Shown one piece after another: positions 20,386 to 56,356 of a DNA stretch of 64,000 bases. The translations under genes were made by a program, and so were the position numbers. Origin of the DNA: Pachysolen tannophilus NRRL Y-2460 (lineage: Eukaryota). The stretch is taken from positions 647,498-711,497 of the forward strand of contig KV454011.1 in assembly GCA_001661245.1 (NCBI GenBank), written 5' to 3'. Position 1 is the first letter of the stretch, and each line of letters starts with the position of its first letter. The notes beneath the pieces were generated by a model. It made no database searches. It was not told where the DNA came from and saw only the letters and a list, made by a program, of their open reading frames with translations.

Positions 20386-21708
20386 ATGAGTGAAGAGAAT
20401 GATCCGCTTTTGACTGCGTTAAGCGCTGATGATGAATCAAGAGTGAATGAGGGTGGTATTACCGCTGATGGTAGTGGTTCTGGTAGTGGTAGTGGTAGTG
20501 GTAGTGGTGGTGGTGGTGTAGGAGTTGTTGAAGATTCAGTTGATAGGGAAAGAGAAAGAGCTTTAACACAATTAAAGAATAAATTGATAGAACATAGACA
20601 ATGGGAGGCAAGGTTAAAGGATCTTAGGTTGAGTATACGAGGTTTGGAGAAGGATTATGATAAGACTGAAGATGATATTAAAGCTTTACAAAGTATTGGT
20701 CAAGTTATTGGTGAAATTTTAAAACAATTGGATGAAGAAAGATTTATAGTTAAGGCTTCAAGTGGACCAAGATATATTGTTGGTTGTAGGAGTACCATTA
20801 AGAGAGATTTATTGAAGCAAGGTGTTCGTGTTGCATTGGATATGACCACTTTAACTATAATGAGAATTTTACCAAGAGAAGTTGATCCATTGGTTTATAA
20901 TATGACAAGTTTTGAACCTGGTGAAATATCTTTTGCTGGAATTGGTGGGTTATCAGAACAAATTAGAGAATTACGTGAAGTTATTGAATTACCTTTGAAA
21001 AATCCAGAATTATTTTTAAGAGTGGGGATTAAACCTCCAAAAGGTGTATTGTTATATGGACCTCCAGGTACTGGTAAAACATTATTGGCTAAAGCTGTAG
21101 CTGCTACAATAGGTGCTAATTTCATTTTTTCTCCTGCTTCTGCAATTGTCGATAAATATATTGGTGAATCAGCAAGATTAATTAGAGAAATGTTTAGTTA
21201 TGCTAAAGAACATGAACCTTGCATTATATTTATGGATGAAGTTGATGCTATAGGTGGACGTAGATTTTCAGAAGGTACTTCAGCTGATAGAGAAATTCAA
21301 CGTACTTTAATGGAATTACTTAATCAAATGGATGGTTTTGAATATTTGGGTCAAACAAAAATCATCATGGCAACAAATAGACCAGATACTCTTGATCCTG
21401 CTTTATTAAGAGCAGGTAGATTGGATAGAAAAATTGAAATTCCATTACCAAATGAAGCTGGACGATTAGAAGTTTTCAAAATTCATAGTGCTAATGTTAG
21501 AAAACAAGGAGAATTTGATTTTGAAGCTGCAGTTAAAATGAGTGATGGGTTCAACGGTGCAGATATTAGAAATGTCATTACAGAAGCTGGTTTCTTTGCT
21601 ATCAGAGATGAAAGAGATTATATTCTTCAAAACGATTTAATGAAAGCTGTTAGAAAAGTTGTGGAATCCAAGAAATTGGAAGGAAAATTAGATTATGAAA
21701 AATTATAA
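20386..21708 (+). CDS. RPT4: 26S proteasome AAA ATPase Rpt4
   Basis: [43 protein letters not shown]-terminal [11 protein letters not shown]. Confidence 0.98.
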
Positions 21709-26380: not shown

Positions 26381-27206
26381 TCACCAAAGATTTGCCATCG
26401 GAAAGTTTGAGTCGTAACCTCCATAAAATCCGCCTAAGCTCGATGGAGGTAAAGTCCTACCGAGTCTTGAATTTGCGGTATTACGATTTTTCTTATTTTC
26501 TTGTTCTCTTAGTACTAGCATCATGCATGATAATACCATTGTATCAAATTTGACGGATTTAACATTTTGATAGTCTTGATATACTTCATCCACATTATTT
26601 AAATTAACGGATTCGTAACATTGTAAATACCCTAACTTATTGATTTTTCTTGGGAAAAGATCTGCTGCTGCATCAGTAAAGTTTCCAAAAGGTGGTAAAG
26701 TAGAATTTCCATAAAGTTTATAGTTAATGGAAGAACCGGATAAATCAGCCAATGTAGTTTCACAATCAAGTAAAGGGTTTTCCAGACTTGGTTTATTATC
26801 TTCTGTTACATTATCTGCCAAAGATACAGCGTTTGGTTCATTCATCAACATTAGTTGAAAATTGCTGCTTCCAAATATCGATGTACAAACAGAAGTCCCA
26901 ACAAATCTGATTTTTGTATTTTTATATATGGCATCGGTAAAAGGTTTAAATCTATGCGTAAACATTGTTACTTCAAATGAATCATTTGGATTAAAAGGAT
27001 CTGGTGTGAATTCCAACACAAATCTTTTAACACCAGATTTAATAAATTTATCATAAACTTTACAAAAAACATACTTATCCAATTCTTCAATTGTATCCTT
27101 GTTATTGCTACTCGAATTACCATTAGTATGTTTATTATTGCTTTCCGGTAATATTAACTTCACTGTTGATCTCTTTAAATTCAAATTATTATTAATCGCA
27201 CCATTT

Positions 27207-27238
<32 letters not shown>

Positions 27239-28138
27239 GTTGTTGTTGCATTTAGATTTCATTATTCTAATTTCAGACTCTGTGTAGTATTTGCTTATGA
27301 TCATGTATGGACAATTCTTCCTAAACTGTGCCAATGTGGGTGTTGATATATAAAACAACGGTAAATTAGAATCTTCCTCATAAACAGCTTCCTCATGTTC
27401 TTCTTCTTCATCATCTTCTTCTAGATCTTCTTCCATATGGGATCCCAATGAGGTTTGTCCCAGTAAATTATGATGATCATTATTAACATGATTATTACTG
27501 GTAGGAGAAAAAGTCGATCCAATATCAAGTCCACCTTCTTCCGCTTCAAATAGCTTATTTTTTTTCAACTTCCATTTATAAGTTTTCCTAAAATAATCCA
27601 AAGATTGCTGAGAGGGAAACAATAACTGACCAGATTTAAAAGTAACCGATACTAAAGGCATATTTCTTTTTGAATTATAATCATCAACAGGTTTGCCAAA
27701 AATCTTATACGAATCAATATTATTATCCGGATCCATTGAAGTTACAGTATCATCACTATCATACCCTATACTATCTATTTCATTACTAATACTATCCAAT
27801 ATATGAGTAATAGGACCACCTCTATTATAAGTATCCCCATTATTACCATTATTTCCAACATTCCGTACTTCATTGTTACTATTCATTATATCTCTAATCA
27901 CAGTATTGATGGTCCTATTTATAGATGACAAGTTATGTGCTAGTTGCCCATAATGCTCTTGTGATGAATCATATCTATTGAAAACCAACGTATCTTGACT
28001 CGATTTTCTTCTTGGTTTCAAATAAACAGATTGGGAACGACTTGAACTTCCATGGTTCCTATTCACATTACTTGAAGAAGGAGTTGAATTAGATCTTCTC
28101 TGTTTCTTATTCCTCCGTATAGAAAATATACTATGCAT
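26381..28138 (-). CDS. Uncharacterised fungal protein with poly-Asn and acidic tracts
   Basis: 585-codon ORF from ATG at 28138; globular-looking C-terminal half; no motif recognised. Confidence 0.75.
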
Positions 28139-28583: not shown

Positions 28584-28655
28584 TCCGTGATAGTTTAGTG
28601 GCTAGAATTACCGCTTGTCGCGTGGTAGACCGGGGTTCAATTCCCCGTCGCGGAG
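28584..28655 (+). tRNA. tRNA-Asp(GTC)
   Basis: TCCGTGA...TCGCGGAG acceptor stem, anticodon loop with GTC, T-loop GGTTCAATTCC, downstream T-run Pol III terminator. Confidence 0.97.
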
Positions 28656-28780
28656 CTTTAATTTTTTTTTATTTTTTACCGTTACAATATTACAATTACA
28701 ATTACAATTACATACAAATGACATATATAAAAACTTATTATTCTTTGTACTATCTGGACTATCTGGACTATTTAGACTAT

Positions 28781-30778
28781 TTACAATTTTCTATAATAGA
28801 TTGCACTTGATTCATCACCAGCTACTAAAACTTGTTCGATATCTTTATTAATTTTTTTACCTTTCAAGTTTTTGAATTGAACAGAATTTTTTTGGTCAAC
28901 GTTTGATAATAACTGTAATCTGTCATTATTCATCTTTATGGTTTTCAGATATTTTTTGTTTTCCAGATTTTCAGTTGACTCGTTCAAAGGCTCTACAATT
29001 TTTGGAACTGTAGCAGGAGCGCCAACTTTAATTCTTTTACCATTTCCCAATTGTCCAAACTCATTACTTCCCCAGACAAGGACATCGTTATTATTCAAAG
29101 TCAATGCAGTATGAGTTTGGCCAGTGGACCAGTGCTTAATACCTATAGTTTCCATCACGTTTGTGTTCTCGTTGAAATCTTTTAGATCTGCCAAATTCTT
29201 GATCTTTAAAGGATCTGCCTGAGCATGGATGAAATGACCCACACCTAATTCACCATTTAATCCATGACCCCAAGATAAATAAAGTAATTTAAATTTTTGA
29301 TTTGAAGTTAAATTTTTCATATCAACCAATTTAGTTGGATCCAGAAGTGATTTTTGAAACAAGTTATAAATATCGGTAGAAGTGAATGTTGCAAAAGAAG
29401 AATCACCTCCTGCATGAATATCAATACATTGTGGTAACTCATTTCTTTTAAAATGATCATTAACTAAATCAATTTTAGATGGGAAAGGTATTATTTCAGT
29501 ATCATAATTGACATTTTTACCTAAAGATCCAAAAGTATTTTTACCCCATGCCCAAATTGATCCTAAATTATCCAATGCCAAAGAATGATTATCACCACAT
29601 GCAATTTGTTTAATAAATCTATTTTCAATTGTCTTTTCCCCAGTTGGAAGATGGGATTTAAAAGTGTTCAAATTTTTTAATTCAAAAACTTTATTTGGTG
29701 GTGGAACTGGATCAAATTGAGATAATGTTGGTAAACCAAATTGACCATAAGATTTATCTATTGGTTTAAACCCAGTTGCTAATGAGAAAACTCTACCTTT
29801 ATTTGTTAATAAAAGTAAATGTTGCAAACCACTTTGAAAATCAGTAATTTTTTCATCTTTGGCTATATTTGGTATTTGTAATTTAGAAAAATTTAAAATT
29901 GGTTTTGATTTGAAAAAACCAATTTTTTTAAATATTGAAGGATTTGAACTAATTTTTAATTGATTTTCAAATGATTCTGGTATATACAAGACTTCCCCTC
30001 TTTCTGTTAATAAATATAATGCTTGGTTACTTATGGTTACTTTGGATAATTTTTGATTTTGTAAAGTTATTCTTGGCTCAGTCAGATCATTATCAAAACC
30101 TTTCCCCCATTGGTATAAATTACCATTTTCATCAATGGCGGCACCACTTGTTTTAGAAATTTTTAAATCTTTTAAAAATTTGCCATCAAAGAAATCAAAC
30201 CTTTTAAACTTAGTAATCAGCTTAGTTTCCCTATCTTTTGGATCAAGTGTATAATATTCATTATTACCACAAACATATAATCCTGGAACTGAAGTATCAT
30301 TTTTATTAGTTACCATAAAAAATTCTTGTTTCTTAGATTTATTTTTCTTTCTTTGTAATTCCTCATAACTTTCTTTAAATGCTGATAAATCATATTCATG
30401 GAAAAGTAAATATTTTAATTGAGACCTATACTGATATGCTTGATAAATACCAATAACCCCACCAACACATACTATACCAAATATAAGCGCCTTCATCCTT
30501 TCAACTAATTCATATCGTTTATTAAATTCAGATTGAGAACTCTCATTCTTGGCACCAGAATCCTCAAATTGAGGAAACTTATACTGCTTTGCATTCTCTT
30601 CTAATAATGGATCCTCAACTTTTAATTTTAATTTTTGTCTAGATAGAGAATCATTTCCTGATTCTTGATTAGTTTTCGAATTTAACCAAAAAAATGATAA
30701 ATGGAAATATCTATTATTATTTGGTAAAAATGCTGACCTATATCCAACAAGTCTCCTAGCAGAACTTCTCCCTAACAT
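28781..30778 (-). CDS. FMP25: Mitochondrial RCC1-repeat protein (complex III assembly factor)
   Basis: Arg-rich presequence, one TM (ALIFGIVCVGGVIGIY), RCC1 repeats (IACGDNHSLALD, WGSNEFGQLG). Confidence 0.85.
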   Translation of the reverse strand: MLGRSSARRLVGYRSAFLPNNNRYFHLSFFWLNSKTNQESGNDSLSRQKLKLKVEDPLLEENAKQYKFPQFEDSGAKNESSQSEFNKRYELVERMKALIFGIVCVGGVIGIYQAYQYRSQLKYLLFHEYDLSAFKESYEELQRKKNKSKKQEFFMVTNKNDTSVPGLYVCGNNEYYTLDPKDRETKLITKFKRFDFFDGKFLKDLKISKTSGAAIDENGNLYQWGKGFDNDLTEPRITLQNQKLSKVTISNQALYLLTERGEVLYIPESFENQLKISSNPSIFKKIGFFKSKPILNFSKLQIPNIAKDEKITDFQSGLQHLLLLTNKGRVFSLATGFKPIDKSYGQFGLPTLSQFDPVPPPNKVFELKNLNTFKSHLPTGEKTIENRFIKQIACGDNHSLALDNLGSIWAWGKNTFGSLGKNVNYDTEIIPFPSKIDLVNDHFKRNELPQCIDIHAGGDSSFATFTSTDIYNLFQKSLLDPTKLVDMKNLTSNQKFKLLYLSWGHGLNGELGVGHFIHAQADPLKIKNLADLKDFNENTNVMETIGIKHWSTGQTHTALTLNNNDVLVWGSNEFGQLGNGKRIKVGAPATVPKIVEPLNESTENLENKKYLKTIKMNNDRLQLLSNVDQKNSVQFKNLKGKKINKDIEQVLVAGDESSAIYYRKL

Positions 30779-33529: not shown

Positions 33530-33537
33530 TATAAAAG
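33530..33537 (+). promoter_or_regulatory. TATA box of the repeat-peptide precursor gene
   Basis: TATAAAAG about 120 bp upstream of ATG 33649. Confidence 0.6.
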
Positions 33538-33648: not shown

Positions 33649-36600
33649 ATGAGAATTTCAAACAGTGTGTTACTTTCATTAAGCGCAGCTCTGATAGTAG
33701 TTGCTTCACCAATACATCACGAGTATCTTAAGCATTATTATGCAAAAAGATACGCCGAACCAGAAGTAGTTACAATCTTTACCACTGTTACCGACTTTAT
33801 TACCGGAGAAAATTGTATAAATACAATTGGAGAAACAGCAACTGTTGGGGTTTCAGCCGGTGTCAGTTTAAGTGTCGATATCTCGGCAGGTGGGTCTATC
33901 ACCATTGTTGAAACTTCAACCGGAACTTCTATCGCTACTATTACCGAAACCGAATCATATCCTGGCTTCCCAGTTTCCACAGAAACTTTATCATCAATTG
34001 ATGTTTCTGTTACCACTTTAACTGAGACTGAGTCATGTACAGAGTACTTAACAACAACTGAATCTTCTAATACAATTCCTAGTCAAACTCAGACATACTC
34101 AGAATCTTCATCATCAACAACATTTTTATCTTTGACCCCAACTTCGAGTGCAATTGAATCAAGTTCTGAATCTTCATTATCTACAATACTTTCAAGTTCT
34201 GCTACTACTACTCCAGAAACCGAATCGTATTCTGAGTCCACCCCAACAACCACATTTTCATCTTCAGCAACAACTTCTAGTACAACAGAGTCAAGTTCAG
34301 AAAGTTCCTCATCAACCATATTTTCATCATCAACCACAACTTCTAGTGCAACAGAATCAAGTTCCGAATCTTCATCATCAACAGTACTTTCAAGCTCTGC
34401 TACTACTACTACAGAAACCGAATCATGCTCAGAGTCCACCCCAACAACTCCAGTACCATCTTCAGCAACTACCTCTAGTACAACTGAGTCAAGTTCAGAA
34501 AGTTCCTCATCAACCACAACTTCTAGTGCAACAGAATCAAGTTCTGAATCTTCATCATCAACAGTACTTTCAAGCTCTGCTACTACTACTACAGAAACCG
34601 AATCATGCTCAGAGTCCACCCCAACAACTCCAGTATCATCTTCAGCAACTACCTCTAGTACAACCGAGTCAAGTTCAGAAAGTTCCTCATCAACCATATT
34701 TTCATCATCAACCACAACTTCTAGTGCAACAGAGTCAAGTTCTGAATCTTCATCATCATCAACATATTCAGTCTCTGTTACAACTGCTACTGAAACTGAA
34801 TCCTGTTCCGAGTCTATGTCGATAGTTCCTCCTGAGACACCAGCTCCTTCCTCATCAACGACAACATCTCTTCTCTCAACAACTGCTATAACCTCTACCG
34901 CAAGTACATCTGGAATCGGATCTTGTGATGCAATTCCATCAGCTGCGGCAATAGCTGCGGCTATAGCTGCAGATGTTTCGGCAGGAGTCACTTTATCTGC
35001 TGGTGCTTTACTTAGTCTCGAGGCAGACGTAAGTGCCGACGTTGGATTACAAGCTAGATCACCATTGGTAATTGATGCTGATGTTGCCGCATGTGTTGAG
35101 GCATTAGTCGATCTTGATCTTAAGAAAAGATCTCCATTAGCAGTTGATGCTGATGTTGCTGCTGACGTTGATGCTTTGGTAGATGTTGGTCTTAAACGTA
35201 GATCTCCACTAGCAGTTGATGCTGATGTTGCTGCTGACGTTGACGCTTTGGTAGATGTTGGTCTTAAACGTAGATCTCCACTAGCAGTTGACGCTGATGT
35301 TGCTGCTGACGTTGATGCTTTGGTCGATGTTGGTCTTAAGAAAAGATCTCCATTAGCAGTTGATGCTGATGTTGCTGCTGACGTTGATGCTTTGGTAGAT
35401 GTTGGTCTTAAACGTAGATCTCCACTAGCAGTTGACGCTGACGTTGCTGCTGACGTTGATGCTTTGGTCGATGTTGGTCTTAAAAAAAGGTCCCCATTAG
35501 CAGTTGATGCCGATGTTGCTGCTGATGTTGACGCATTGGTTGATGTTGGTCTTAAAAAAAGGTCCCCATTAGCAGTTGATGCCGATGTGCTGCTGATGTT
35601 GACGCATTGGTTGATTGTGTCTTAAGAAAAGGTCTCCATTAGCAGTTGATGCTGATGTTGCTNNNNNNNNNNNNNNNNNNNNNNNNNNNNNNNNNNNNNN
35701 NNNNNNNNNNNNNNNNNNNNNNNNNNNNNNNNNNNNNNNNNNNNNNNNNNNNNNNNNNNNNNNNNNNNNNNNNNNNNNNNNNNNNNNNNNNNNNNNNNNN
35801 NNNNNNNNNNNNNNNNNNNNNNNNNNNNNNNNNNNNNNNNNNNNNNNNNNNNNNNNNNNNNNNNNNNNNNNNNNNNNNNNNNNNNNNNNNNNNNNNNNNN
35901 NNNNNNNNNNNNNNNNNNNNNNNNNNNNNNNNNNNNNNNNNNNNNNNNNNNNNNNNNNNNNNNNNNNNNNNNNNNNNNNNNNNNNNNNNNNNNNNNNNNN
36001 NNNNNNNNNNNNNNNNNNNNNNNNNNNNNNNNNNNNNNNNNNNNNNNNNNNNNNNNNNNNNNNNNNNNNNNNNNNNNNNNNNNNNNNNNNNNNNNNNNNN
36101 NNNNNNNNNNNNNNNNNNNNNNNNNNNNNNNNNNNNNNNNNNNNNNNNNNNNNNNNNNNNNNNNNNNNNNNNNNNNNNNNNNNNNNNNNNNNNNNNNNNN
36201 NNNNNNNNNNNNNNNNNNNNNNNNNNNNNNNNNNNNNNNNNNNNNNNNNNNNNNNNNNNNNNNNNNNNNNNNNNNNNNNNNNNNNNNNNNNNNNNNNNNN
36301 NNNNNNNNNNNNNNNNNNNNNNNNNNNNNNNNNNNNNNNNNNNNNNNNNNNNNNNNNNNNNNNNNNNNNNNNNNNNNNATTGGTTGATGTTGGTCTTAAA
36401 AAAAGGTCCCCATTAGCAGTTGATGCCGATGTTGCTGCTGACGTTGATGCTTTGGTAGATGTTGGTCTTAAACGTAGATCTCCACTAACAGTTGACGCTG
36501 ACGTTGCTGCTGACGTTGATGCTTTGGTCGATGTTGGTCTTAAGAAAAGATCTCCATTAGCAGTTGATGCTGATGTTGCTGCTGACGTTGACGCATTGGT

Positions 36601-36760
36601 TGATGTTGGTCTTAAACGTAGATCCCCATTAGCAGTTGACGCTGACGTTGCTGCTGACGTTGACGCTTTGGTAGATGTTGGTCTTAAACGTAGATCTCCA
36701 CTAGCAGTTGACGCTGATGTTGCTGCTGACGTTGATGCTTTGGTCGATGTTGGTCTTTAA
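33649..36760 (+). CDS. Secreted Kex2-processed repeat protein: signal peptide, Ser/Thr stalk and tandem SPLAVDADVAADVDALVDVGL peptides (spans an assembly gap)
   Basis: ATG 33649 in an A-rich context; MRISNSVLLSLSAALIVVA|SP signal; HHEYLKHYYAKR pro-region; identical peptides separated by KKR/KRR on both sides of the gap. Two apparent 1-nt losses near 35588-35620 lie at the contig end. Confidence 0.85.
34138..34830 (+). repeat. Degenerate roughly 180-200 nt tandem repeats encoding the Ser/Thr/Glu stalk
   Basis: About 3.5 copies of TTTSSATESSSESSSSTVLSSSATTTTETESCSESTPTTP.SSSATTSSTTESSSESSSS. Confidence 0.85.
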
Positions 36761-36810
36761 AAGAGATCTCCATTGGCAGTCGACGCTGACGTTGCTGCTA
36801 ACGTTGACGC
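35059..36810 (+). repeat. 72-nt tandem array (24 codons: K(K/R)R + 21-aa peptide)
   Basis: One degenerate lead unit (35059), 6 perfect units from 35131, 1 frameshifted and 1 partial unit, the gap, 1 partial and 5 complete units, then one relic unit after the TAA. Confidence 0.95.
35663..36378. other. Assembly gap (716 N) inside the repeat array
   Basis: N run flanked on both sides by the same 72-nt repeat. Confidence 0.99.
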
Positions 36811-37272
36811 AGGTGTTATTGTCAATTGGAAAGCTGGATCAGGTTTGTCTTCTCGCTCGCTAAACACTAAAGAATCTTCTATGATTCATTTCAACAATTT
36901 TTCAAAGTTTACTAAAATTTTACATCATAATCTGCATTGAAAACAACTTTCATGTTATTTCAAATGGACTATTGATATACATTCTTTTTTCCTTTCTTCC
37001 TTCTTTTATTATTAATTATATCTAATATCATTTATATTCTTCCACCTTTTTATTTTTTTTTCTTTAAAAAACTTTTAATTTTATTTCTAGTTCAAATCAA
37101 TAGTTAGTTGATAATCTTATAAATATTATATTTTTCTATAAACTATACTACTGGTATTGGAGCTTTGTTTCGAATAATAACAACCATGTCAAATATAGTG
37201 AAATCAATTTATTACTCATTACATAGACCATTTAAATTTTGAAATACCATAAACAGAAGTTGATGTAGCTTT

Positions 37273-38022
37273 TCAACCAAAGAACCTTAGAATAAGATAG
37301 AAACAAAAGAAAGTGACAACACATCCACCAACAAAGAACAACTTATCTTCTTTACATTTCCTTTCAATTTTTTTCAAAGTAACATTTGAAATTTTCAAAG
37401 TTCCTACCGATGATGATATCTTTCTTGACATATTTCTTAAATAATCATTTTGTTCAACCAAATTGTCCAAAGATCCCGATGCCATTTCAAGGAGGTGATC
37501 CAATTGTTGATTTCCCGTTTGAAGTGTATGTTTCTCTCTATATAAGCCTTCTTCATATCCAAGTTGCAGTTGCTGTTGTTGATCTGTAGGTGGGCTATTA
37601 TTTATATAAGGATTATCCGACGCACTATTAGCGAAGCTACCGTTATGGCCATGCCTTGTTCTTTCAAATAACTGTGTTCGTGATTGCTCCTGTAAATGCT
37701 CTTCTCTAAATTTTTTCAACCTGTTAAATTGTAATTTAAATTCATCAAGTTGATTATTTAAATTGTTCAACTTGTTCTCATTTTTCAAAAACTTTGTTTC
37801 ATTTTCCTTTTCTTGCTCCTTGGAAACACTAGATGATGATTGTCTTTGTTGTTTATTCAACGATATAGAATACTCATCTATTGTCTTTGCCAATTGTGTT
37901 AATGTTGTTGATATTTGACCTATCAATGAAAGTGGTGAATTCGTTATATTTGCTTCAAACGATTCCAAATCTCGTTTCAAAGACTGAGTTTGTTTAACAG
38001 CATGATTATAAATGGAATTCAT
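37273..38022 (-). CDS. BOS1: ER-Golgi Qb-SNARE
   Basis: MNSIYNHAVKQ start (ATG 38022), SNARE coil, EDK..F plus C-terminal TM. Confidence 0.9.
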   Translation of the reverse strand: MNSIYNHAVKQTQSLKRDLESFEANITNSPLSLIGQISTTLTQLAKTIDEYSISLNKQQRQSSSSVSKEQEKENETKFLKNENKLNNLNNQLDEFKLQFNRLKKFREEHLQEQSRTQLFERTRHGHNGSFANSASDNPYINNSPPTDQQQQLQLGYEEGLYREKHTLQTGNQQLDHLLEMASGSLDNLVEQNDYLRNMSRKISSSVGTLKISNVTLKKIERKCKEDKLFFVGGCVVTFFCFYLILRFFG

Positions 38023-38221
38023 GTCTTCTCCTTCCCTATTAGAAACTCCAAACAAGACAATCAAAAACAAAAATAATATTTATAATTATAAATATAATTT
38101 AATTCAAACTTTAATAATGGTGATGATAATTATAAAAACAAAAAAGCAAAAAAAAAGAAAATAATTGCATATTTCAATTAGTTAGTTATAATACAAATAT
38201 TTACAATTGAAATCGGGGAAG

Positions 38222-39553
38222 ATGACATCCTACAACATAGCTATGATATCAGATTTTTTCTATCCGCAACCAGGAGGTGTTGAATTGCATGTTTATCATT
38301 TGTCGCAGAAACTAATAGATTTGGGTCATAGTGTTATAATAATTACACATGATTACGGTAACAGAACAGGTGTTAGGTATTTGACGAATGGATTGAAGGT
38401 TTATTATTTACCATTCTTGGTACTTTATAGACAAGCATCGTTTCCCTCAGTGTTTTCTGCTTTTCCAATTTTGAGAAATATAATAATACGAGAACGTATT
38501 GATATTGTACATGGTCATGGTTCTTTTAGTTCGTTATGCCATGAAGCGATTTTCCATTCAAGAACGATGGGGTTGAAGACGGTTTTCACCGACCATTCAC
38601 TTTTCGGTTTTGCTGATGTTGGAAGTATATTGGGGAATAAATTGTTGAAGTTCACATTGAGTGATGTTGGCCATGTTATATGTGTCTCTCATACTTGTAA
38701 AGAAAATACAGTACTAAGAGCTTCTTTAGATCCATTAAATGTTTCAGTAATTCCAAATGCAGTGGTTTCTGAAGATTTTAAACCAGAAAAATCTAAGGCA
38801 AGACCTCAGTTAACAATTGTAGTGATATCACGGTTATTTCAAAATAAAGGAATTGATTTGTTGACTGCTATAATACCCAGAATATGTTCTCAGAATAAAA
38901 GTGTTAATTTTTTAATTGCTGGAGATGGACCAAAATTTATAGATTTAGACCAGATGAGAGAGAAATTTCAATTACAAGACCGGGTGGAACTAATTGGAAG
39001 TATTAAACATGAGGAAGTGAGAGATATCATGGTACAAGGTCATATTTATTTACATCCTTCTTTAACTGAAGCGTTTGGAACTGTATTAGTGGAAGCTGCA
39101 TCGTGTGGATTGCTTGTGGTGACAACCAGAGTTGGTGGTATTCCAGAAGTTTTACCAAGCCATATGACAGTATTTGCAGATCCAGAAGAAGATTCGTTGG
39201 TTGATTCCATAAATCGTGCAATAGATATTGTTAGAAAGAATAAGATAGATACTTCAAGATTTCATGATGAAGTGAAGGCCATGTATGACTGGTCTGATGT
39301 GGCTAGAAGAACGGAAAATGTTTACAATTCCATTGATGATGAAGATATCAATTTGAACTTGATCGATCGTTTAAAGAAATACTACAGTGGTGGACCTTGG
39401 GCAGGAAAACTATACGTCTTATGTGCAGTGGTTGATATATTTCTATATATCTTCTTGGAATGGTGGTTTCCAAGGGATAATATAGATGTTGTGAAAAAAT
39501 GGCCAAATGATCATGTAAATAATGAAAGTGATAGCGATTATGATATATATTGA
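38222..39553 (+). CDS. SPT14: GPI-GlcNAc transferase catalytic subunit (PIG-A/GPI3)
   Basis: [55 protein letters not shown]. Confidence 0.97.
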
Positions 39554-48874: not shown

Positions 48875-49807
48875 ATGGATAGATTGCAACGGTTATTAGG
48901 ACAGGCTAATGGTCTTGGGGCTCCACCTCCAACAGATGGACCTGCAATTGATAACGCTGAAACGGTTTATATATCTTCTTTGGCTTTATTGAAGATGTTG
49001 AAGCATGGTAGAGCTGGGGTTCCGATGGAGGTCATGGGGTTGATGTTGGGTGAATTTGTGGATGATTATACTGTTCATGTTATAGATGTATTTGCAATGC
49101 CTCAGTCGGGTACTGGTGTTTCTGTTGAAGCTGTTGATGATGTTTTCCAGACCAGAATGATGGATATGTTGAAACAGACTGGAAGAGATCAAATGGTTGT
49201 TGGTTGGTACCATTCACATCCTGGGTTTGGGTGTTGGTTGTCATCTGTTGATGTTAATACTCAACAGTCTTTTGAACAATTGAATAAAAGAGCAGTGGCG
49301 GTTGTTGTTGATCCAATTCAATCTGTTAAAGGTAAAGTTGTTATTGATGCTTTTAGATTGATCAATTCTACAACTTTAATGATGGGACAAGAACCAAGAC
49401 AGACAACTTCGAATGTTGGGCATTTGAACAAACCATCAATTACTGCTTTAATTCATGGATTAAATCGTCATTATTATTCTTTAAATATTGATTATAGAAA
49501 AACACCAAATGAAATTGGAATGTTATTAAATTTACATAAGAAAGAATGGCAATCCGGATTACAATTAAACGATTATGAAGAAAAGGAAAAATCAAATATT
49601 GAAGCAACAAGAAAAATGGTGAAAATAGCAGAACAATATGTTCAAAGAATTCAAGAAGAAAAAGAATTGTCAGAAGAACAATTGAAAACTCGTTATGTCG
49701 GTAAACAAGATCCAAAGAAACATTTGACCGAAACAGCAGAGAGTAGGTTAGAAGAAAATATAGTTTCAATTGTATCAGGTAATGTGGATTCGTTAGCAAT
49801 CCAGTAG
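48875..49807 (+). CDS. RPN11: Proteasome lid JAMM deubiquitinase
   Basis: [15 protein letters not shown] and [17 protein letters not shown] (JAMM motif). Confidence 0.98.
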
Positions 49808-55393: not shown

Positions 55394-56356
55394 NNNNNNN
55401 NNNNNNNNNNNNNNNNNNNNNNNNNNNNNNNNNNNNNNNNNNNNNNNNNNNNNNNNNNNNNNNNNNNNNNNNNNNNNNNNNNNNNNNNNNNNNNNNNNNN
55501 NNNNNNNNNNNNNNNNNNNNNNNNNNNNNNNNNNNNNNNNNNNNNNNNNNNNNNNNNNNNNNNNNNNNNNNNNNNNNNNNNNNNNNNNNNNNNNNNNNNN
55601 NNNNNNNNNNNNNNNNNNNNNNNNNNNNNNNNNNNNNNNNNNNNNNNNNNNNNNNNNNNNNNNNNNNNNNNNNNNNNNNNNNNNNNNNNNNNNNNNNNNN
55701 NNNNNNNNNNNNNNNNNNNNNNNNNNNNNNNNNNNNNNNNNNNNNNNNNNNNNNNNNNNNNNNNNNNNNNNNNNNNNNNNNNNNNNNNNNNNNNNNNNNN
55801 NNNNNNNNNNNNNNNNNNNNNNNNNNNNNNNNNNNNNNNNNNNNNNNNNNNNNNNNNNNNNNNNNNNNNNNNNNNNNNNNNNNNNNNNNNNNNNNNNNNN
55901 NNNNNNNNNNNNNNNNNNNNNNNNNNNNNNNNNNNNNNNNNNNNNNNNNNNNNNNNNNNNNNNNNNNNNNNNNNNNNNNNNNNNNNNNNNNNNNNNNNNN
56001 NNNNNNNNNNNNNNNNNNNNNNNNNNNNNNNNNNNNNNNNNNNNNNNNNNNNNNNNNNNNNNNNNNNNNNNNNNNNNNNNNNNNNNNNNNNNNNNNNNNN
56101 NNNNNNNNNNNNNNNNNNNNNNNNNNNNNNNNNNNNNNNNNNNNNNNNNNNNNNNNNNNNNNNNNNNNNNNNNNNNNNNNNNNNNNNNNNNNNNNNNNNN
56201 NNNNNNNNNNNNNNNNNNNNNNNNNNNNNNNNNNNNNNNNNNNNNNNNNNNNNNNNNNNNNNNNNNNNNNNNNNNNNNNNNNNNNNNNNNNNNNNNNNNN
56301 NNNNNNNNNNNNNNNNNNNNNNNNNNNNNNNNNNNNNNNNNNNNNNNNNNNNNNNN
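55394..56356. other. Assembly gap (963 N)
   Basis: N run between poly-T tracts. Confidence 0.99.

Follow-up and report, generated by a model that had tools for sequence, protein, structure and literature searches.

A predicted KEX2-processed polyprotein with a high-copy acidic peptide in a budding yeast

The window analyzed here is a stretch of 64,000 nucleotides of Pachysolen tannophilus NRRL Y-2460 (contig KV454011.1, positions 647,498 to 711,497 of the forward strand), and all coordinates below refer to it. On its + strand, an open reading frame (ORF) that begins at ATG 33649 and ends at a TAA at 36758..36760 most likely encodes an orphan pre-pro-polyprotein of the KEX2-processed repeat protein (KEP) type. 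Its C-terminal part is an array built of 72-nt units, each consisting of the 21 residues SPLAVDADVAADVDALVDVGL followed by KKR or KRR. The locus is very probably a real gene, and we predict that the precursor is probably cut into peptides. The complete statement, namely that a KEP-type polyprotein is cut into a self-assembling surface peptide, is a plausible proposal that falls somewhat short of probable. The KEP class is already described; the gene adds a member to it and is not a categorical novelty.

Much of the evidence for this assignment comes from the array itself. Eleven clean units are visible, of which 10 are identical in peptide sequence and one, located to the right of an assembly gap, carries A4T. 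The 11 cores are encoded by 9 distinct DNA sequences specifying just 2 peptide sequences: the variant alleles comprise 10 synonymous changes and 1 non-synonymous change, where 73% non-synonymous would be expected (binomial P=1.7e-5). These counts refer to alleles and not to pairs, because gene conversion can spread variants. The linkers vary in their codons (AAA CGT AGA, AAG AAA AGA, AAA AAA AGG) and in the presence of K or R at the middle residue, and they are always tribasic, with KKR or KRR in each of the 12 in-frame cases. In the part of the protein read to the left of the gap (638 residues), [KR]R is confined to residues 33-34 and to the unit borders. The peptide sequence and its basic linkers are thus under selection: the excess of synonymous variants, the invariably tribasic linkers and the restriction of dibasic sites to the borders together suggest that selection on this precursor preserves the peptide as well as the cutting sites. 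Just inside the cutting sites, 10 of the 11 clean units begin with S-P followed by L-A, a STE13 signature, and the remaining unit has L-T. The codon usage of the repeat also favours a real product: relative to 28 further ORFs in the window it is skewed (GAC 0.40 vs 0.10, GGT 1.00 vs 0.57, CGT 0.38 vs 0.10), and in yeasts such a skew accompanies high expression.

In the peptide itself, all odd positions from 3 to 21 are aliphatic and the five Asp residues occupy positions 6, 8, 12, 14 and 18. Since aliphatic residues alternate with Asp or small residues, the peptide would, as a beta-strand, present one greasy and one acidic face. Calculated at 180 degrees, the hydrophobic moment is 0.51, a value that 56/20,000 shuffles reach, and this agrees with an earlier note on this DNA, which had recognized the pattern of a two-faced beta-strand. 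The helical moment is an unremarkable 0.14 (reached by 10,539/20,000 shuffles). The peptide has a net charge of -5 and contains no aromatic, basic or Cys residue.

To describe the predicted structure of the repeats, AlphaFold2 was run without alignment on two pieces of the array, the left one of 215 residues and the right one of 126 residues. For the left array, the best model had a predicted local distance difference test score (pLDDT) of 63.5 and the other four scored 36-49; for the right array, two models scored 68.9 and 64.2 and the remaining ones 39-52. In both arrays each unit is modelled as two strands, L3-V13 and L16-K23, and the chain turns at D14-A15 and at R-S-P. A VIA-align comparison of the array model returned parallel beta-helices, with 9h78_B at the top (Z 16.9, root mean square deviation (rmsd) 3.5, 203 residues aligned), followed by SufD (Z 15.3), tailspikes and curli CsgA (8c50_A, Z 14.5 but rmsd 8.9). 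Foldseek of the model against the PDB gave nothing at E <= 0.001. The models show a strong predicted tendency to beta-stacking, which would fit a cross-beta assembly of released peptides and an uncut solenoid equally well.

The locus is laid out as follows:

33530..33537, + strand: TATA-like box TATAAAAG, about 112 nt 5' of the ATG, a motif by sequence only
33649..33705, + strand: signal peptide, residues 1-19, MRISNSVLLSLSAALIVVA, assigned by inspection
33706..33750, + strand: short His/Tyr-rich pro-peptide, residues 20-34, with KR at 33-34
33751..33915, + strand: N-terminal segment free of repeats, residues 35-89, containing a single Cys and an alternating stretch of V/S/A/G/D; homologue search empty
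33916..34998, + strand: Ser/Thr-rich mucin-like segment with 66/198-nt repeats
34999..35058, + strand: degenerate Ala/Val/Asp/Ser stretch preceding the repeats; its end, QAR, is not dibasic
35059..35130, + strand: first unit, diverged (SPLVIDADVAACVEALVDLDL + KKR)
35131..35562, + strand: six clean 72-nt units, each SPLAVDADVAADVDALVDVGL + KRR or KKR
35563..35662, + strand: frame-broken unit (two 1-nt deletions, 35563-35632), followed by a partial unit of 10 codons that abuts the gap
35663..36378, no strand: assembly gap of 716 N, with room for about 10 units, out of phase with its flanks
36379..36757, + strand: unit tail (LVDVGL+KKR), then five clean units (36407-36757)
36758..36760, + strand: stop TAA, in place of the first Lys codon of a linker
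36761..36940, + strand: open frame past the stop, with KR, a degenerate unit and a non-repeat tail; 59 codons to a TGA at 36938-36940

The start codon lies in an A-rich context (AAAAAAATGA). The signal peptide carries an Arg at position 2 and a 13-residue core with a mean Kyte-Doolittle value of 2.78, and its putative cut is preceded by V-V-A, which by inspection places V and A at positions -3 and -1. The single CTG codon of the gene before the stop encodes residue 15, within this signal peptide. The Ser/Thr-rich segment (residues 90-450, about 360 residues) is 61% Ser plus Thr and contains 35 Glu and 5 Cys; no N-x-S/T sequon was found within these residues. A minus-strand ORF of 300 residues, rich in Asp, Glu and Val, lies opposite it (34089-34991); it is a mirror effect of the composition of the Ser/Thr repeat and is unlikely to be a gene. 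The earlier note had described a signal peptide, a short pro-peptide with a terminal KR and a Ser/Thr stalk, and each of these elements was recovered: the first in the hydrophobic core and the V-V-A motif, the second in the KR of residues 33-34 and the third in the composition of residues 90-450.

The repeats are restricted to the gene. A degenerate pattern of the 21-nt unit gave 19 matches, all inside it, against none in 100 shuffles, and Tandem Repeats Finder scores range from 630 to 834; a sub-period of 12 nt (4 residues) is present inside the unit. The size of the array is less constrained. Between 22.6 and 23.6 units would fit, provided that the size of the gap is correct. Matching points on the left and right of the gap are 17.75 units apart, so the two flanks are out of phase and the run of N is therefore an estimate, as is any copy number derived from it. 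In the contigs of sequencing runs, positions 34516-34639 and the gap are uncovered and none spans the array, and depth is not usable as copy number. As to the counts given in the earlier note, its eleven complete clean copies were confirmed, as 10 identical units and the one with A4T, and its 22-23 copies are compatible with the room available, whereas the phase of the gap speaks against taking that room at face value. Its statement that units are bounded by KKR or KRR holds for every in-frame linker and not for the last unit, which ends at the TAA without a linker.

The end of the ORF was analyzed in the same contigs. The letters of the TAA are identical in a 7174-nt contig (run X3) and in a 3836-nt contig (run X5) from two studies; each spans 36728-37100 with 0 differences, and one of them may be the window's own source. 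Because contigs from two studies show identical letters, the TAA is not a local error. As it sits at the first Lys codon of a linker, the protein ends exactly at the end of a peptide, which speaks for a precursor of the KEP type. By comparison with the frame past the stop, a random 60-codon frame stays open in 141/20,000 trials. On the other side of the gap, the two 1-nt deletions break the frame in the unit at 35563. In some contigs of run X1, two linkers (35482 and 35554) are one A short in their A7 runs, which are intact in X3 and X5. These losses look like homopolymer read errors, and this suggests how the frame breaks beside the gap arose. Since such 1-nt losses in A runs occur nearby in the X1 contigs, we infer that the breaks at 35563 are probably assembly errors.

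Relatives of the gene were sought in protein libraries that hold neither the proteome of the host nor those of its close relatives (0/3 window proteins were found by exact look-up), and this limits every negative result on homologues given here. A Pfam scan at E <= 0.01 matched only LED_rpt (PF20854), with 27.7 and 34.1 bits, below its gathering cut-off of 59; the alpha-factor families MF_alpha (PF04648) and MF_alpha_N (PF05436) were unmatched in the same scan. An exhaustive phmmer search with the array revealed no close relative and no sequence relation to Rep1 of Ustilago maydis. It gave 70 matches at E <= 0.001, the best with 33% identity. Judged from a composition table of the 70 and from four sequences in full, these seem to be long proteins with repeats or with a biased composition; one of those inspected in full (P0006) is a leucine-rich-repeat protein. 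Word-based searches at E <= 0.01 were empty for residues 1-150 (against proteins of 354-1129 residues) and for residues 1-223 (against proteins of 122-391 residues). The best score in the ESM Atlas was 0.82, under the useful range. The motifs of the unit were not found in the supplements of the two KEP catalogues (PMC6339444, PMC7329392) or in the paper library searched, and a literature search on alternating-Asp peptides returned general reviews only. The earlier note had not recognized the gene as a described one, and the phmmer, N-terminal, Pfam and literature searches likewise gave no described relative. The term orphan means only that no relative is visible in the libraries searched, because these lack the close relatives and short-read contigs break in the array.

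According to the composition table, a single one of the 70 phmmer matches (P0045) has KR-bounded repeats. This hypothetical protein of Linnemannia zychae (Mortierellomycota), KAF9910061.1, may be KEP-like in its own right. Its N-terminus resembles a signal peptide, and its tandem repeats share the motifs V-D-A-x-V and L-V-D with the yeast unit, in half-units ending in KR or PR; BLASTP aligned it with the yeast array at 32% identity over 173 columns (E 5e-10 pairwise, 1.7e-5 in the library search). It differs by its 44-residue period, its richness in Asn, His and Gln, its hydrophobic tail resembling a glycosylphosphatidylinositol (GPI) signal and its origin in an early-diverging fungus. The likeness may be due to convergence or to shared composition.

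The window is AT-rich (G+C = 30%) and carries the ordinary yeast housekeeping genes POL1, leucyl-tRNA synthetase, RPT4, SPT14/PIGA, PDI1 and RPN11. The repeat gene is flanked by an RCC1-like gene (28781-30778) on one side and by a V-SNARE/SPT14 pair (37273-39553) on the other. The top library matches of the PDI1 neighbour are from Candida boidinii, Kuraishia, Ogataea, Komagataella, Ascoidea and Wickerhamomyces, with an identity of 53-56% only. Because these best matches are from Pichiaceae-type yeasts, the host is a budding yeast, as had been supposed in the earlier note. Two minus-strand ORFs of 217 and 585 residues (607-1260 and 26381-28138) had no Pfam match at E <= 0.01. The sole tRNA in the window is a tRNA-Asp (GTC) at 28584-28656 on the + strand. 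A second assembly gap of 963 N (55394-56356) lies in a poly-T/AT-rich intergenic stretch; a 334-codon ORF spanning it is composed of N.

The CTG codon is scarce throughout the window, accounting for 57/14,127 codons across 28 ORFs. The highly conserved genes RPT4 (20386-21708), RPN11 (48875-49807) and SPT14 (38222-39553) lack it, and it was seen only at variable positions of POL1, CDC60, PDI1 and ARC15. When POL1 was compared with yeast Pol1, two of the six CTG positions of the gene (253 and 868) could be assessed, and both fall in variable stretches. The rarity of CTG would be compatible with reassignment of the CUG codon in this lineage.

From the anatomy of the sequence we infer all the processing steps, the secretion, the assembly and the role of the peptide, as follows. 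The signal peptide would direct the protein into the endoplasmic reticulum, where the Ser/Thr-rich segment would be O-mannosylated. In the late Golgi, Kex2 would cleave after KR34 and after each K-[K/R]-R, and Kex1 would then trim the C-terminal basic residues of each peptide. The last copy would need no such trimming because the stop follows it directly. A dipeptidyl aminopeptidase of the Ste13 type may take S-P and L-A off each N-terminus. The predicted products are a large glycosylated N-terminal fragment and at least 13, probably about 22, acidic peptides of 21 or 17 residues. The peptide would serve as bulk, self-assembling or surface-active extracellular material, its stacking being opposed by charge at neutral pH and promoted by acid or Ca2+. 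A more specific version, which we put forward tentatively and consider rather unlikely in its full detail, is that this yeast lineage has evolved a surface-active material independently. Kex2, Kex1 and Ste13 would together release some 20 copies of a Val/Ala/Asp peptide of 17-21 residues from a polyprotein with a mucin-like carrier, and the peptides, soluble as polyanions, would be converted by acid or Ca2+ into an amphipathic cross-beta layer that covers the wall or an air-water surface. The system would have arisen in convergence with the Ustilago repellents, with a charge switch built in. Hydrophobins are not known from budding yeasts.

Several observations weigh against a polyprotein cut into a self-assembling surface peptide. 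The assembly carries a frame break and a gap within the array, and neither the phmmer search of the array nor the N-terminal searches found relatives for judging conservation. Over the two AlphaFold2 runs, only 3/10 models have a mean pLDDT >= 60, a middling confidence. The counts behind the codon skew of the repeat come from repeated copies and hence are not independent. Given its net charge and its lack of aromatic residues, the peptide may stay soluble. An array left uncut could adopt a solenoid fold that places K-K in a strand and R-S-P in a turn, and this fold could shield the sites from Kex2. Lastly, the STE13 signature is proposed by Le Marquer et al. as a mark of hormone-like peptides and is absent from Rep1 in their account (PMC6339444). 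The repellent-like peptide suggested in the earlier note keeps the support of the secretory precursor layout and of tribasic sites found only at the unit borders, whereas the STE13 signature, which Rep1 lacks, does not agree with it.

These points feed into other explanations of the locus. A decaying pseudogene, or in part an assembly artefact, could account for the two 1-nt deletions beside the gap, for the in-frame TAA followed by 59 open codons and for the 716-N gap within the array. This explanation is very improbable, since the TAA and both its flanks recur without differences in contigs of two studies and since the copies vary almost solely at synonymous sites, a state that would not be maintained in a dead gene; moreover, the frame is broken where a contig ends, the A-run losses of X1 (35482, 35554) indicate read errors, and the TATA-like box and the A-rich start context are intact. 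A surface glycoprotein that remains uncut or is partly cut is a more serious competitor, which we nevertheless regard as unlikely. It would consist of a mucin-like stalk and a C-terminal beta-solenoid, with one 24-residue unit per turn and a basic stripe pairing with the Asp face. The regular solenoid with two strands per unit obtained by AlphaFold2 for both arrays, its resemblance to parallel beta-helices (9h78_B, Z 16.9) and the top phmmer matches, which are leucine-rich-repeat proteins with a 24-residue period and other repeat proteins, all count for it, as does the stalk, Ser/Thr-rich stalks being typical of yeast wall proteins. Against it, a secretory protein with K-[KR]-R-S at every border and nowhere else passes Kex2 in the Golgi. 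In addition, no GPI-type hydrophobic C-terminus is present at the real end (...VDVGL) or in the read-through tail, whose last 20 characters (19 residues and the stop) have a Kyte-Doolittle value of -0.29, and no Pir-type DGQ motif was found. The stop has taken away the old C-terminal tail and other decay is not visible, and the middling confidence of the AlphaFold2 models counts against this solenoid as well.

The same processing could also yield a diffusible bioactive peptide, either a signal that the producing yeast senses or an agent with effects on other microbes. The hormone-like mark just described speaks for such a ligand, as do the strict identity of the peptide across units and the fact that the KEPs of Saccharomycetes are mostly alpha-factors (PMC7329392). 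Set against this are the lack of a Pfam match to MF_alpha or MF_alpha_N, the absence of any aromatic, basic or Cys residue and a perfect 19-residue alternation for which a ligand has no obvious need. The very high copy number and the 440-residue mucin-like pro-region are also unlike the pheromone precursors described in the relevant passages of the two KEP surveys (PMC7329392, PMC6339444). On balance we judge a diffusible peptide to be improbable, and a secreted polyprotein of the KEP type remains the most likely identity of the gene.

The presence in a yeast of a high-copy KEP that is not a pheromone would broaden the known uses of yeast secretory processing. If the peptide self-assembles, it would constitute a short, genetically encoded beta-sheet material that is switchable by pH or Ca, and it would be the first repellent-like system in Saccharomycotina found by the searches made here. 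The case also indicates that genes of such a build are overlooked by catalogues that drop proteins with long non-repeat parts and by short-read assemblies that collapse arrays.

KEPs are defined by a signal peptide and repeats parted by Kex2 sites (PMC7329392). The gene described here has a predicted signal peptide and near-identical units split by dibasic sites (11 clean units, 12 linkers). The catalogue of these proteins holds 7878 entries, 2560 of them without homologue; they are common in filamentous fungi and scarce among budding yeasts, Saccharomycetes having an average of 1.35 KEPs per strain, mostly alpha-factors (PMC7329392). The filter of Umemura 2020 admits no stretch of more than 100 residues (PMC7329392), and the present protein fails it with about 459 residues between KR34 and the first KKR (493-495); the passages of Le Marquer et al. 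2019 that give their definition of KEPs set no 100-residue limit (PMC6339444). A cyclisation context of the DUF3328 type is not expected in Saccharomycetes (PMC6339444, PMC7329392). Compared with the catalogued KEP peptides, the motifs of the unit have no counterpart in the supplements searched. The X-Pro/X-Ala dipeptides that follow the Kex2 sites, which constitute the STE13 signature, are shared with KEPs and alpha-factor (PMC6339444). In other respects the gene departs from alpha-factor: its copy number is far above the two to four of the latter (PMC6339444), it has no MF_alpha Pfam match, and its peptide is acidic and without aromatic residue.

Other known systems resemble the gene in part. 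Like curli CsgA and FapC, the uncut array as modelled by AlphaFold2 stacks one strand-turn-strand unit per rung, and FapC appeared weakly in Foldseek; these proteins are bacterial and uncut, no sequence relation to them was found, and CsgA superposes at the high rmsd given above. Candidalysin is a cationic helix, whereas the present unit combines strong acidity with a low helical moment. Ece1 of Candida albicans is, like the predicted precursor, a secreted yeast polyprotein from which Kex2 and Kex1 release several peptides (PMC6339444, PMC2515848), but its peptides are non-identical and only one is active (PMC6339444). An analogy with Rep1 was already drawn by Bader et al. for C. albicans Ece1 and CA0365 (PMC2515848). 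Rep1 has a signal peptide and 12 repeats, and its cleavage by KEX2 gives 10 small amphipathic peptides, which form amyloid fibrils on the cell surface, together with a large fragment of 229 residues (PMC3133707). It belongs to a basidiomycete and its peptides are 34-53 residues long, against 21 here. With many amphipathic units and a large fragment in both precursors, Rep1 would be the closest functional analogy to the polyprotein proposed here.

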